The translations under genes were made by a program, and so were the position numbers. Under the pieces are notes generated by a model that was given only the letters and a program-made list of their open reading frames with translations, made no database searches and had not been told where the DNA came from. From the IMG/VR virus record IMGVR_UViG_3300028833_003520: a stretch of 64,000 nucleotides of DNA. One strand, 5' to 3'. Shown here piece after piece: positions 13,138-47,199 of this stretch; position 1 is the first letter of the stretch, and the number at the start of each line of letters is the position of its first letter. This DNA comes from a virus (lineage: Duplodnaviria; Caudoviricetes).

Positions 13138-13238
13138 TGGAGCACCGAGCAGGATTTGAACCTACATCTTCCGATATTCTCGGCTGTTTTACTGAATTGA
13201 GAGTTAGATATCATTACTCAATATTAAACTATCGGTGC
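13138..13238 (-). ncRNA. tRNA-like RNA with enlarged D-loop and 5-nt anticodon loop
   Basis: Perfect GCACCGA/TCGGTGC acceptor + CCA, GTAGG-TTCAAAT-CCTGC T-arm; ~28-nt hairpin insert in D-loop; CCGA-GAATA-TCGG anticodon arm. Confidence 0.75.
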
Positions 13239-14787: not shown

Positions 14788-15198
14788 TCAATGCTGATAT
14801 AAGACGAATTGAATGTTTGGTTCATCCTTGCAATTTTCAATGAGTCCAACGAAAGCGTTGCTTCGATACTCGTGGTCAATTGCTTGCATTTCTTTCGCAC
14901 AAGCGAGCAGATTGTCGAGGTCAGGAGCAAGGCGAAGCCTGTTTCCATATGCGTCTTTGCTTATGTCATTCCATACGGCTTTGTCGAGGTTAACATCGTA
15001 AAAGTCGTAATATATGGAGAACGGTGTTTCTTCAGAGAAACACTTCATAAAACGGTCGTAAAGTTCGTCGAATCCTCGCAAATCACCCAAGCAAATATGG
15101 GCGATTGTTTTAGAAACATACAGGTTTAATCCTGTGTCTGCTGCAGGTCTTTTATGTTCATAAGGTGATATGATAAAAATATCTGTGATAACACTCAT
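14788..15198 (-). CDS. Hypothetical protein
   Basis: AAAGGAG RBS. Confidence 0.75.
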   Translation of the reverse strand: MSVITDIFIISPYEHKRPAADTGLNLYVSKTIAHICLGDLRGFDELYDRFMKCFSEETPFSIYYDFYDVNLDKAVWNDISKDAYGNRLRLAPDLDNLLACAKEMQAIDHEYRSNAFVGLIENCKDEPNIQFVLYQH

Positions 15199-32619: not shown

Positions 32620-33020
32620 TATGTATTCTCCTTTTTTCTAAAGTAGAGTACCCAATATGGGTAACCGTTGTAGGCGTTACACGACTGCTCCATACCCGTT
32701 AAGATTACTTCTTCTCCGAACAGGGCAGAGAGGAATTTGCTTATCTGTTCAGGTGGGTACATTATGTAAAACTGGCAAGTGCCACATATTTCTTCCCATA
32801 ATGTACTGTAGTTAGGGTATTGCTGCATCAGTCGGTCAGACCACGCTTGATTATCACTCTGACGGTAGCCGTTCTTGTAAACGCAATAGTCAGAATAAGA
32901 ATATGGATATTCTTCGGGAAGACGAATAGAAGGTTTGCCAGATATGGTTATATTGTAGTGAACAATCTGACCTTCTTCGTCAACATAGGCTCTACGAAAT
33001 TCTCTGTATGCTGAATCCAT
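32619..33020 (-). CDS. Hypothetical protein
   Basis: Start MDSAY behind AAAAGGAG. Confidence 0.7.
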   Translation of the reverse strand: MDSAYREFRRAYVDEEGQIVHYNITISGKPSIRLPEEYPYSYSDYCVYKNGYRQSDNQAWSDRLMQQYPNYSTLWEEICGTCQFYIMYPPEQISKFLSALFGEEVILTGMEQSCNAYNGYPYWVLYFRKKENT

Positions 33021-33096
33021 TTGATGTATTCTCCTTTTCATTGGTAAATGGCTCTATAGTCAATTAAGTTTTAGAGCCTTGTATTATTATTTATAT

Positions 33097-33127
33097 CAAA
33101 AGTGGGCTGAATGACCGAACAGGTCAT
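33097..33127 (-). promoter_or_regulatory. CAAAAGT-N7-hairpin(GAACA) element heading the RNase H operon
   Basis: CAAAAGT GGGCTGA ATGACC GAACA GGTCAT; same geometry as copies at 21.2, 21.6, 26.0 and 27.1 kb. Confidence 0.65.
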
Positions 33128-33193
33128 TTATTGCCTTTTTATAGTGCAATATTACCAAATACGTTATGCAAAATAACGGTTCTATAAAATATG

Positions 33194-33223
33194 TTGACAA
33201 ACAGTTAGGATTTATGATAGTAT
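33194..33223 (+). promoter_or_regulatory. Sigma-A promoter of structured ncRNA
   Basis: TTGACA-18-TAGTAT with TGn extended -10. Confidence 0.7.
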
Positions 33224-33229
33224 AGCCAC

Positions 33230-33557
33230 AGGTTGATATTCCATTACGGATTGTCAAACTCCTTTCTTAGTTCGATGCTGATGAAGTATCAAAACGTAAG
33301 GATTGAAACTTGTACGTACTTGTGGATAAGGCTGTACGACTAACTGTGACAAGGTAAGGGACTTACCACCTTCGGTTTAAGCAGATTTTGGTTAGTCGAT
33401 GCAGACACACAAAACCGTTAAGCGATACGAAATACGCAAGTCTTTCGGAGTAAGCACAACATAACGGGTGTCTGTAGTAAAACAGTTAGCGTTTGAACCG
33501 AAGTTACGAATTAAGATGAAACGGCACCCATCAGGTAACTGGTGGGTGTTTACTTTT
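33230..33557 (+). ncRNA. Unidentified ~330-nt highly structured RNA
   Basis: Own promoter and terminator (33524-33557), no credible ORF, long-range helices and a 13-bp pseudoknot. Confidence 0.7.
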
Positions 33558-33850
33558 GCTCGGAAATATTTATTTACGAGCGTTTATAGAACATTTGACG
33601 TTATTCAAAATAACAATTTGGGAATGTTTTTCCGATTTATTACGGTTGATGATTATTTTGCATAAAATCGTCGATGTTAAAAATCCGACACCATATAGGT
33701 CAAATGTGACATTATTATTTCTTTTTTATTGAAATATGAGGATATTTGTGGTATATTTACTTCGATATATCCATCCGCCACACTTATCAGACAGATTTGA
33801 GAAAATTTGACTGGTGAGGTGGTGAAAATCGTCAAGAAAGGAGAAGTGAA

Positions 33851-36800
33851 ATGGAGCATATCAATTCTTCGACGCTTAAGCCTAATGAGCAGAAGAATAC
33901 TCCGTCCTTTTGGCACAATCTTACTGACTTTAGCAAAAGTCCTGTTCTGCGTACTGTAAAAGCGATTAGAGATAATCGTAAAGTACGTAGATTTTTGGAT
34001 GTTAGCAGAAGTCCCGTGAGGTGCTGGTGGGTGGAGCACAAGATGTCGAGACGTGTGATTTCAGCCACACTTTCTGCATTTCTTGTGTTTGGTTCTTCAG
34101 GCATTACGGCTCTCGCAGCGTCACCAGATGACATCAACGGTACGACCGTTGTAGATGCCAATCAGGGTACTTCCGCAGTTATACTGAAGCCTGTAACTAA
34201 CGGAAAGTTAACCTTTATTGACAGTCCCGAAAGTTCGTTAGATGTTCCGAGTTCATCAAGAGTATCAATCAAGGTCACTGTTGAAGATGGTTACAAACTG
34301 TCAGGTATTGTAGCCGTTAACAACGAAGGTGAAGTTCTTGAAGGTCAACTTTATGATGATATTTTCACATTTATCGCAAAGGGAGTAAGTATTTCAGTTT
34401 ATGCAGAGTGCCTTGAGAAAGACCGTGTTGATGAAGCACAGGCACAGATAGATAATCTTAACGAGTTAATCGTTAAGACTTCTGATGCATCAATTCTTCT
34501 CTCAGGAAGCAATATTGTATCGCATTATGGTAACTTATATATTTTAAGTTATGACAATAGTGAGGATGCAAAGGCTGCATTCACTTACTACAGCAATGTA
34601 GCAGAGTTTGTTGATTTCAACACAGCAATGATTATTCAGGACGAAGAATTCTCTGATTATGGTATTGCGAACTCAAGTGAATGTGAGTCTGTTGCAGGTA
34701 CAAATGAATTAGAGAAACTTGATGAAGTTTCTGGTTCTGTACCTCAGGCTCCTGCAAAGACTATTGCCCTCATTGATACAGGTGTATCAGCAGATGCGAC
34801 TGTAGTAGATAGAGTATCTTTTATCGAGGGTAGTCTTGATGATGATAACGGACACGGTTCTGCTATGTACGATATCATTAAAGCCGAATATCCTGACGTT
34901 AATATCCTTTCTATTAAGGCTATGAACTCCGAAGGTATCGGTAAGGCTTCAACAATATATGCGGCTATTCAGTATGCAATCGAAGCAAAGGTTGATGTAA
35001 TTAACCTTTCTATTTCTGCATATAGCCGTGTAGAGAATGTGTTACTTCACGAGGCAATTCAACAGGCAACTGCCGCAGGCATTGTTGTCGTTGGTGCTGC
35101 AGGTAACTTGGATTCTAACGCCAAGTGGTTCTTGCCTGGTATGTATGATGAAGTAATCGTTGTAGGTGCGTCTGCACATTATCAGGAAGGCAATAATGAA
35201 ACATCTGAGGGAGTTTCTTCTTCTGATGTATGGTATCTTGAAAAGAATCCTGATTCTAATTATGGCGATACTGTAGATTATTTTGTTGATGCAAATTCCA
35301 CTTCTGAAGCATCCGCTATTATGGCGGCTTATATTGCGAAGAATGGTACAACGATACCTACAGGCAATGCTGTTACAGATAGGTTCCATTTAAGAGCAGA
35401 CCTTGATTATGATGAAGAGACATCTATGGATGACCCTTACATCAACAATTATGCCGACTTTGAAACTGCAATGCATTGGAGTCATATGAACCCCAGTAAT
35501 GCACCTTCAGAAATCACCGAGAACGGTGGTGGTGATGGTGACCTTAGAATTTGGTACAGTGAATTTATTCCTGGTGCTTCGTATTCAACATTCGTATATC
35601 GTCAGGCAGGTGTTTCGCAACAGTATGGTAACTTCAGTCAGTCAATATACTGTGCAGAAGCAGCACAGACGAACCCTATGGGTGGTTGGACACTTGAAAG
35701 AATTGGCGGTTCAGGTTGGGATGATAAGTGTAAACCTTGGTGTGGTCTTGGACCTGGCGGTGACGCTTATGACCTTATGATTGACTGGTGGAGAAGCCAT
35801 CAGGCTGAGATGGATGCAGCAGGTGTTACATTGACTATTCCAGCCACTATGAACGCAAGTCATATGAACACGGGACATACGTGGCCGAGTCAGGCTACGG
35901 ATGTTGATAGAGCCAATAGATTTTTCTATATGGTTGCCCATATGTGCATTGACCGTGCATATACAGGTTCTTGGCATCATTTGCCTGGTGGTAAGAATGG
36001 TAAGTTCGATGACCTTGTAAAAGCATTTTATAACTATGGTCTTGAAGTAATGAAAGACGATAGTGATGCATATACAGATTGGTGGTATAGAAGTTACAAG
36101 GTTAAGGGCAGAAGCGATGGTACTTATCAGCGTCTTTTGCTTGGTGGTGTTCGTAAGAATACTACACAGCCTGTATCTGTTCAGAAAGAAACATCTCGTG
36201 TAGGTTGGGATAATGCAAGAATGGCATTCTTTACAGGTGCATCAAATGTTAATACATCAGGTGTTAGATATTATGCTCCAATAACAGATGCGACATTTAG
36301 ACTTGCAGGAAGCAAGGCTTATCCAATTACACACGTTGGTAGTGATGGTAAAGTTGTTTGGGATAAGGTCGATAAAGGCGATTATATTCTTGTTGAGAAT
36401 GATGTACCAAGAGGTTATATTCGTGCAGACGATGTAAACTTCACTGTTGGTAATGAACCTGTCAGTTTGACTGTTACAAATATCCCTGTTGTAAGAGATG
36501 TGCCTCTTATTAAGACTTATGGTAATACTGCTTTGTCAGATAGTAACAGCAACTATAGTCTTGGTGGAGCCAAGTATGAACTTATTCCTACTTGGGGTAC
36601 AGATGCTCAAAAGCAGACTTATAAGTTTACTGTAACCACAGGCACAGACGGTAAGGCAACATTTACTAATGTTCCTTATGGTCGTTATATTTTGCACGAA
36701 ACACAAGCCTCAAAGGGTTGTGCGTGTGCTCCTGATATTTATGTATCAGTTACACCCGAAGGTATTTATCAGACAGGAAGTAATAACCAGACTGTAAATG

Positions 36801-44404: not shown

Positions 44405-44427
44405 CTGCTCTATTTCACTTCTTGACG

Positions 44428-44463
44428 GTAACCCCTCGGCAATTGTCGAGGGGTTATCTATTT
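44428..44463 (+). terminator. Terminator after adhesin gene
   Basis: TAACCCCTCG/CGAGGGGTTA stem. Confidence 0.8.
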
Positions 44464-44466
44464 GCA

Positions 44467-44495
44467 TTGACTTTTCTCATAAATGAGCATATAAT
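44467..44495 (+). promoter_or_regulatory. Sigma-A promoter with operator in spacer
   Basis: TTGACT-17-TATAAT; TTCTCATAAATGAGCA fills the spacer. Confidence 0.85.
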
Positions 44496-46853: not shown

Positions 46854-47177
46854 ATGTATCAGGCGGCAGGCTGGTTCCTTATGATGTTCGCAATTCCTTA
46901 TCTCTTTTATGTCTGTGAGACAGGCATACTATCGTTGATAGGCTTGCTGATTAGTAAGAAAGCCGTGAGAGCAAAACAAATTTTGCTGATAATATCTTGT
47001 GTTGAAAATGGTACGGCTTTATTCTTTGATTTTGTGATGTCAATATATGCGAAAGATTTTAATTCAGCATTGTTATTGATTATTTGGGGCGGAGCGTTTA
47101 TAAGGGTTAGTATTCTAATAGGACAAATAATCAATTATGTGATATGTAAGAAGAAAAAGATTGCAGGTTTCTGTTAA
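46854..47177 (+). CDS. Small membrane protein
   Basis: Three hydrophobic segments, AAGGAAGG RBS. Confidence 0.65.
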   Translation: MYQAAGWFLMMFAIPYLFYVCETGILSLIGLLISKKAVRAKQILLIISCVENGTALFFDFVMSIYAKDFNSALLLIIWGGAFIRVSILIGQIINYVICKKKKIAGFC

Positions 47178-47199
47178 GAAGCCTGTTTTCATTTCTACG

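Follow-up and report, generated by a model that had tools for sequence, protein, structure and literature searches.

The 64-kb window (the whole stretch of DNA analysed here, 64,000 nucleotides) is part of an uncultured Gram-positive conjugative plasmid-like element that is widespread in the cattle and sheep rumen. It carries a plasmid RNA gene that is real and expressed, fits no established class and has a narrow distribution. Positions 33190-33560 form a complete transcription unit on the + strand, and we are highly confident that this unit is a real, independent noncoding RNA gene. In the best reading, to which we assign a probability of roughly 0.4, its product is a stable and independent plasmid RNA that acts in trans and exposes a CU-rich anti-Shine-Dalgarno box. 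The function of the RNA is probably regulatory and it most likely represents one more plasmid regulatory RNA; on present evidence it is not a new class of ornate structured RNA. If the RNA controls expression of the adhesin or transfer genes, it would offer a handle on how giant plasmids silence costly transfer functions in a natural community. The RNA also illustrates that public rumen RNA data can reveal discrete, highly expressed plasmid RNAs.

The RNA gene, its transcripts and its conservation

Recognisable genes of the window encode a ParM/ALP segregation protein, PcfJ, RNase H, a sortase, a NikA-like protein, topoisomerase III and a 3517-aa T-Q-ester/SpaA adhesin, the last of these ~300 nt downstream of the RNA. 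The RNA is located in the 810-nt spacer that separates the divergent early genes from the adhesin gene, at the junction of early (leading-type) genes and adhesin/transfer genes. It is directed at the adhesin gene and stands at the head of the co-oriented adhesin, sortase, relaxosome and T4SS genes. The features of the unit and of the remaining spacer are collected in Table 1. The RNA promoter includes a TG at 33215-33216 (TG-n-TAGTAT), matches the consensus at 10 of 12 positions and would direct transcription from A33230.

Table 1. Features of the RNA gene and the adjoining spacer. Positions refer to the window unless a relative is named.
Feature	Position	Strand	Remarks
RNA promoter, sigma-70 type	33194-33223	+	TTGACA 33194-33199, 18-nt spacer, TAGTAT 33218-33223
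5' hairpin	33233-33257	+	UUGAUA.UCC / GGA.UGUCAA, loop AUUAC; fold prediction
Stretch recovered from RNA libraries	33243-33525	+	contigs from four studies
CU-rich box CUCCUUUCUU, anti-Shine-Dalgarno-like	33259-33268	+	mostly single-stranded (predicted)
Core	33265-33516	+	closed by the closing helix
Closing helix	33265-33274/33507-33516		10 bp
Hairpin of the original prediction	33274-33290		complementary
Helix to be crossed in the pseudoknot	33337-33345/33390-33398		9 bp
Alternative pairing ("switch")	33340-33347/33482-33489		8 bp
Crossing helix, within core	33370-33382/33491-33503	+	13 bp; encloses domain 33400-33476
Helix of domain 33400-33476	33400-33408/33468-33476		9 bp
GNRA-capped hairpin of domain 33400-33476	loop 33436-33439	+	fold prediction
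Further pairings			GGTAAG/CTTACC and CCGTTA/TAACGG, confirmed
Variant change A33405G	33405		A-U pair to G.U
Variant change C33437U	33437		in L012; GCAA loop to GUAA, still GNRA
Variant change	33478		unpaired base
Variant change	33536		terminator loop; sole terminator change
Intrinsic terminator	33523-33557	+	12-bp stem 33523-33550, GUAA loop, U-rich tail (T tract)
Spacer hairpin	33558-33581	+	
Spacer long-range helix	33591-33599/33699-33707		9 bp; one compensatory change
13-nt motif TTATKCAAAATAA	33164-33176; 33601-33613; 33653-33665	+; +; -	three exact copies
Adhesin promoter, extended -10	33729-33757	+	
Adhesin 5' UTR hairpin	about 33776-33824		21 bp
Adhesin start region	33832-33868		AAGGAG(N)AAGTGAAATGRAGCAYAT
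Conserved adhesin promoter/start in relatives	L010 9236-9400; L013 886-1010; L120 15983-16104		

The original prediction described a noncoding unit with its own promoter and terminator that belongs to no recognised family and lacks the hallmarks of tmRNA, RNase P and SRP, and this description holds. Both signals are present and the unit contains no open reading frame with a ribosome binding site. Searches with Rfam 15 covariance models, which took in 6S, tmRNA, RNase P, SRP, ROOL, GOLLD, OLE, raiA, HEARO and T-box, yielded only three tRNAs elsewhere in the window at the gathering threshold. At E ≤ 10 the RNA was assigned to no family, the best local match being rli49 on the opposite strand, whose 19 bits (E = 0.68) fall short of its threshold of 40. 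ARAGORN detected no tRNA or tmRNA in the unit. The RNA and its surrounding 6.5 kb were unmatched in blastn searches of phage and plasmid records, and a 23-mer of the RNA core had 0 matches in genome contigs and viral contigs. Two further candidate identities were rejected. The reading of AAGGATTGAAAC as a CRISPR repeat amounts to a chance-level match of only 12 nt, and the inverted repeat flanking the unit (33179-33188/33583-33592), which had suggested a mobile cassette, is not kept in the near-identical variant L001.

The RNA is present in the RNA libraries of many rumen studies. When a 501-nt query was sampled as words, 14 RNA runs from at least eight cattle or sheep rumen studies contained 0.51-0.53 of them, which is the share that the RNA part of the query alone would give. 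Contigs from RNA libraries of four studies span 33243-33525, 33249-33525, 33248-33522 and 33259-33522. They show 0 differences from the window and are identical between cattle and sheep samples, at depths of 5.5 to 1006. All of them start inside the 5' hairpin or just 3' of it (33243-33259) and leave the terminator uncovered, and in one (X4) sequencing adapters abut 33249 and 33525. The shared stops, one within the 5' hairpin and one at the terminator's foot, hint weakly at discrete RNA ends, contigs having no power to give true RNA ends, strand or level. Neither flank (32900-33242 or 33526-33900) was covered in these four RNA runs, which is not proof of silence. DNA assemblies of three near-identical variants (L001, L002 and L012) run past both RNA ends, so the RNA-library contigs are unlikely to be DNA carry-over.

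Comparison with these three DNA variants indicates that the RNA is constrained more strongly than its neighbours at the sequence level. L001 carries 3 changes in the 328-nt RNA compared to 18 in the 293 nt that follow it (p = 5e-4), and L012 carries 1 change compared to 16 (p = 6e-5). Divergence is 0.3-0.9% in the RNA versus ~6% in the spacer after it, with ~5% in the neighbouring gene for a 140-aa protein, and the RNA is the most conserved stretch among the 1.4 kb compared. All four variant changes in the RNA are neutral for the predicted structure. Two changes fall in the promoter region, one in the promoter's spacer (33211) and one on the n of TGn (33217).

Predicted fold and related elements

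Every helix listed in the original prediction exists, being fully complementary when G.U pairs are counted, and the proposed preference for the + strand is likewise recovered (fold z-score -4.47 on +, -0.80 on -). The closing helix, the 13-bp helix and domain 33400-33476 are common to the MFE, centroid and MEA structures. The individual helices are, however, no commoner than expected by chance. The core contains 9 helices of at least 9 bp versus a mean of 5.3 in dinucleotide shuffles, 28 of 300 of which reach 9, and a helix of at least 13 bp is found in 35 of 300 such shuffles. Much of the fold z-score is due to the terminator: it is -4.5 with the terminator, -2.78 for the core without it and -1.5 when only the part seen in the RNA-library contigs is folded. 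The core fold is only moderately better than shuffles (z -2.8). In these models the pseudoknot and the "switch" are conceivable pairings, and an elaborate pseudoknotted fold is unproven. The UUCG loop once assigned to domain 33400-33476 is better explained otherwise, UUCG being more likely part of the stem beneath a GCAA (GNRA) tetraloop. Two of the variant changes, A33405G and C33437U, are compatible with the predicted core, and all relatives identified are either almost identical to the window or too far diverged for alignment.

To identify more distant relatives, RNase H and ALP homologues were used, which led to three element types (L010, L013 and L120) with ALPs 77-80% identical. L010 and L013 carry, in the same spacer and the same orientation, a TTGACA promoter and a terminator enclosing ~220 and 194 nt, respectively. 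The spacer of L120 has no comparable RNA unit. L013 shares with the window the first 47 nt from the predicted +1 (AGRUUGAUAU, the hairpin and the box UCCUUUCWUAGU) and the promoter layout, and its 5' hairpin keeps UGAUAUC/GAUGUCA at the same distance from the start. The score of this alignment was reached by 12 of 300 shuffles, and a covariance model of the 5' module (R1) matched L013 in the syntenic spacer with E = 1.8 over 1 Mb. The L010 RNA cannot be aligned to the window, with which it has only short strings in common, for example ACGAAUU near the 3' end, and its spacer gave no match in Rfam. Without their terminators, the cores of both relatives fold no better than shuffles (z -0.76 for L013, +0.65 for L010). 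The RNA genes of this slot are thus fast-evolving and dispensable.

Among the ALP-based loci L014-L133, no match to the RNA was found by blastn, regular expression or covariance model; these are distant elements with ALPs 33-44% and 59% identical, L014 (75%) and L120-L123 (77%) being closer. A tblastn search of plasmids with the ALP protein returned nothing above 41% identity. Separately, L014-L119, whose ALP/ParM proteins are 33-44% identical, are found on 100-260-kb contigs, many of which come from gut metagenomes (several titled human gut), and IMG/VR lists many of these contigs as viral. They point to a large family of giant plasmid-like elements, perhaps misfiled as phages. Homologues of the 140-aa protein were also tried as a route to synteny and set aside, as they lie in unrelated contexts (a leuS T-box, phage gene rows). 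In one such locus (L003, 441-861), a 49%-identical homologue adjoins, as judged by eye, a T-box leader and a leucyl-tRNA synthetase gene, indicating that the 140-aa protein is not confined to this plasmid family.

The CU-rich box and competing explanations

The CU-rich box is located in the linker between the 5' hairpin and the core. For those of its bases that lie outside the closing helix (33259-33264), the predicted unpaired probability is 0.39-0.95 in the full RNA and 0.52-0.94 in the 33249-33525 form. The original prediction had proposed that the box is complementary to the ribosome binding site of the adhesin gene. The complementarity is indeed exact over 10 nt (CTCCTTTCTT against AAGAAAGGAG at 33834-33843), but it is not specific to the adhesin gene. 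The matched Shine-Dalgarno sequence is a generic one, AAGAAAGGAG having 6 further copies in the window; the match stops at the Shine-Dalgarno sequence, and neither the adhesin leader nor the rest of the 64 kb offers pairing beyond it. CUCCUUUCUU also matches 9 nt of the 3' end of Firmicute 16S rRNA, and the 5' module as a whole, a hairpin followed by a CCUCCUUUCU-like tail, resembles the end of that rRNA. At the aligned place L013 has UUCCUUUC, with UCCUUUC kept and half of the box predicted to be paired, and in L010 the box is down to CUCC, a comparison that comprises these two diverged relatives only. A trans-acting anti-Shine-Dalgarno role fits the independence of the unit, the accessibility of the box, the likeness to the 16S 3' end and the retention of the box in L013, and is weakened by the generic Shine-Dalgarno match and by L010. 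Taken by itself, the proposition that anti-Shine-Dalgarno pairing is the RNA's mode of action is tentative and somewhat doubtful.

C/U-rich regulatory RNAs that pair with Shine-Dalgarno sequences are known from low-GC Gram-positive bacteria and include S. aureus RNAIII and RNAs of the LhrC, RsaE and RoxS type. The RNA described here resembles them in forming its own noncoding promoter-to-terminator unit, in its stability, in an accessible pyrimidine-rich stretch complementary (not specifically) to Shine-Dalgarno sequences and in having a surface adhesin among its candidate targets. It differs from them in its unrelated sequence, in the position of the CU box in a 5' linker instead of hairpin loops and in being plasmid-borne. 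In the mechanism that we propose, the gene specifies a stable noncoding RNA of a large conjugative plasmid-like element of rumen Firmicutes. Host RNA polymerase would make a 328-nt primary transcript (33230-33557), and the species that accumulates would extend from ~33243/33249 to 33525, perhaps trimmed to the core closed by the 10-bp helix. The RNA would act in trans through its single-stranded CU-rich box, which would pair with strong Shine-Dalgarno sequences of plasmid mRNAs, including that of the adhesin gene, and so keep translation of its targets low as long as no plasmid transfer takes place. The main part of the folded core would be to confer stability or bind a protein.

A less likely alternative is that the RNA is a cis-acting leader of the transfer genes, with transcription mostly stopping at 33523-33550 and reading through to the adhesin and transfer genes under some signal. 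This could be achieved by attenuation (prgQ/Qs-like or zipper-like) or by an RNA that renders the polymerase resistant to terminators (conAn2-, put- or EAR-like). The position of the unit at the head of the transfer-side genes fits such a role, and there are precedents in Gram-positive conjugative plasmids (PMC8191782, PMC13401043, PMC8265641). Strong + strand terminators, at 44427-44458 and 47163-47186, lie further down, and the strongly structured + strand spacer after the RNA terminator (z -6.1), in which variant changes mostly keep pairs, also speaks for a leader. However, ~300 nt separate the end of the terminator (33557) from the adhesin Shine-Dalgarno sequence (33838), a promoter conserved in four element types lies between them, and L120 has this adhesin promoter without an RNA unit. 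In addition, no contig joins RNA and spacer, which is no proof of absence. The closest precedents also differ in their details. In pCF10, the prgQ/Qs RNA and the PQ-proximal intergenic RNA are short, abundant RNAs upstream of adhesin/T4SS genes that end at an intrinsic terminator (PMC8265641). The RNA described here likewise is short and abundant and has a co-oriented promoter ahead of such genes and an intrinsic terminator, but it has no peptide ORF and no antisense partner promoter, the adhesin gene has its own conserved promoter and the terminator is followed by a variable 300-nt spacer. conAn2, which provides the RNA part of the conAn system for processive antitermination, measures 260-600 bp with members only 30-40% identical, and its pLS20 prototype consists of ~20-bp inverted repeats around a ~240-nt centre, with a GC-rich block and, close to the 5' end, a stem-loop (PMC8191782). 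It lies within the conjugation operon directly after the gene for ConAn1 (PF17362) and lacks its own promoter and terminator (PMC8191782). Similarly, our RNA is poorly conserved, falls within this size range and heads Gram-positive conjugation genes, and the 232 nt between the complementary ends of its closing helix may correspond to the ~240-nt centre. Unlike conAn2, it is transcribed from a promoter of its own, no ORF precedes it, and the closing helix has 10 bp rather than 20 bp. The ConAn1 profile was not found in 27 ORFs around the RNA, some of them searched down to E = 0.1, and no 16-nt block of 75% GC was seen in the RNA sequence. In the zipper-type attenuator cATT of pLS20-family plasmids, an upstream hairpin is complementary to the terminator, which lies 0-26 nt from the Shine-Dalgarno sequence of the first gene (PMC13401043). 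The RNA shares with cATT a weak 5' hairpin followed by a long closed structure and an intrinsic terminator ahead of conjugation genes, but the hairpin-terminator complementarity that the zipper design requires is absent. The 5' arm of the terminator instead pairs best internally with 33467-33473 (-13.5 kcal/mol), a pairing that would favour a leader, and this arm is unpaired in folds ending before the terminator 3' arm. Of the defining features examined, a ConAn1 gene among the 27 ORFs, hairpin-terminator complementarity and a terminator close to the first gene are missing.

We consider it improbable that the RNA acts through its fold by binding or sequestering a protein, as 6S, CsrB or Y RNAs do, or serves as a decoy, be it for a host defence or for a factor recognising the 16S 3' end. 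The high depth in RNA libraries, constraint over the whole 328 nt and not the seed alone, the GNRA loop preserved in the variants and the 5' module's general likeness to the 16S rRNA end all point in this direction. The syntenic relatives, on the other hand, lack a conserved fold, GGA motifs are not enriched (5, about the expectation from composition), no partner protein is evident nearby and the CRISPR-repeat-like end AAGGAUUGAAAC is at chance level (E = 0.8). The unit might also have no function of its own, being either a stable by-product or a transcription unit that is decaying or turning over fast within a variable spacer. In favour of this, the cores of the units in this slot (328, ~220 and ~194 nt) are unrelated, L120 has no unit at all, and individual helices are at chance level. 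The low divergence of the RNA relative to spacer and 140-aa gene and the identical sequence in cattle and sheep samples of four studies argue against this explanation, which we hold to be quite improbable. That the RNA is the mRNA of a small protein is barely credible. Frames of 36 codons (from TTG 33233) and 22 codons (from ATG 33275) are present, but both lack a Shine-Dalgarno sequence, the aligned frame of L013 stops after 9 codons and the variant changes follow no codon pattern. A more speculative idea, to which we attach little probability, is a stand-alone RNA that mimics the 16S rRNA 3' end (a hairpin, a CCUCCUUUCU-like tail and a stable core) or a free-standing relative of RNA-based processive antiterminators. 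Were the mimicry true, an RNA as abundant as this would vie with ribosomes for strong Shine-Dalgarno sites on plasmid mRNAs and act as a global translational brake on the conjugative element.

The adhesin promoter and the remaining spacer

The adhesin promoter (TTGAWW-17-TG-n-TAYAWT) and the adhesin start region are kept in all four element types, including L120, and the remainder of the spacers cannot be aligned among them. Conservation of this promoter in the RNA-less L120 indicates that the adhesin gene is independent of the RNA's promoter. For a translation start region, such conservation at the DNA level seems unusually strong. A search pattern for this region (GAAAGGAGNAAGTGAAATGGAGCA) had 0 matches in metagenome, genome and viral contigs; it fits only the adhesin start of L013 and not those of the window or L010. 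The corrected pattern matched only two unrelated phage contigs among viral contigs.

The three copies of the 13-nt motif TTATKCAAAATAA are the only ones in the 64-kb window and all lie in the RNA spacer, around the RNA unit. The first is located 18 nt upstream of the -35 element of the RNA promoter, and the second and third, separated by 39 nt, are inverted relative to each other and lie in the interval from the RNA terminator to the adhesin promoter. The second is part of a 17-nt repeat that also holds the palindrome GTTATT-N3-AATAAC. The motif cores are unchanged in L001 and L012 despite the ~6% divergence of the spacer around them, and the copies look like putative operator sites for some regulator.

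The spacer after the terminator (33558-33850) scores better in folding than the RNA itself, with z -6.1 as RNA and -3.3 as DNA on the + strand and -1.7 on the - strand. Among the predicted spacer pairs that vary between the three variants, 13 of 16 stay paired and one is changed on both sides. This compensatory change, in L001 and L012, combines 33592 C>T with 33706 G>A in the long-range helix. Such pair-keeping, seen in three sequences only, is suggestive, and the region may serve as a structured leader or comprise several palindromes that bind proteins, as judged from the folding models.

On the far side of the adhesin gene, a strong terminator with a 14-bp stem is followed at once by a near-consensus promoter (TTGACT-17-TATAAT; 44427-44495), and a second strong terminator (47163-47186) follows a 107-aa gene. 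These signals indicate that the transfer-side genes are split into several promoter-terminator units. Upstream of the RNA, a 9-bp hairpin with a GAACA loop (33108-33130, +) precedes the divergent 140-aa gene. In L120, a 530-nt gap between early genes contains, at 14790-14990 (- strand), two tRNA T-arm-like stretches, GGGAATCGAACCC and GGGATTCGAACCC (given as + strand). One of the three clustered tRNAs of the window (13141-13238, -) is 98 nt long with a 33-nt insertion in the D-arm region and scores 39 bits against the tRNA model.
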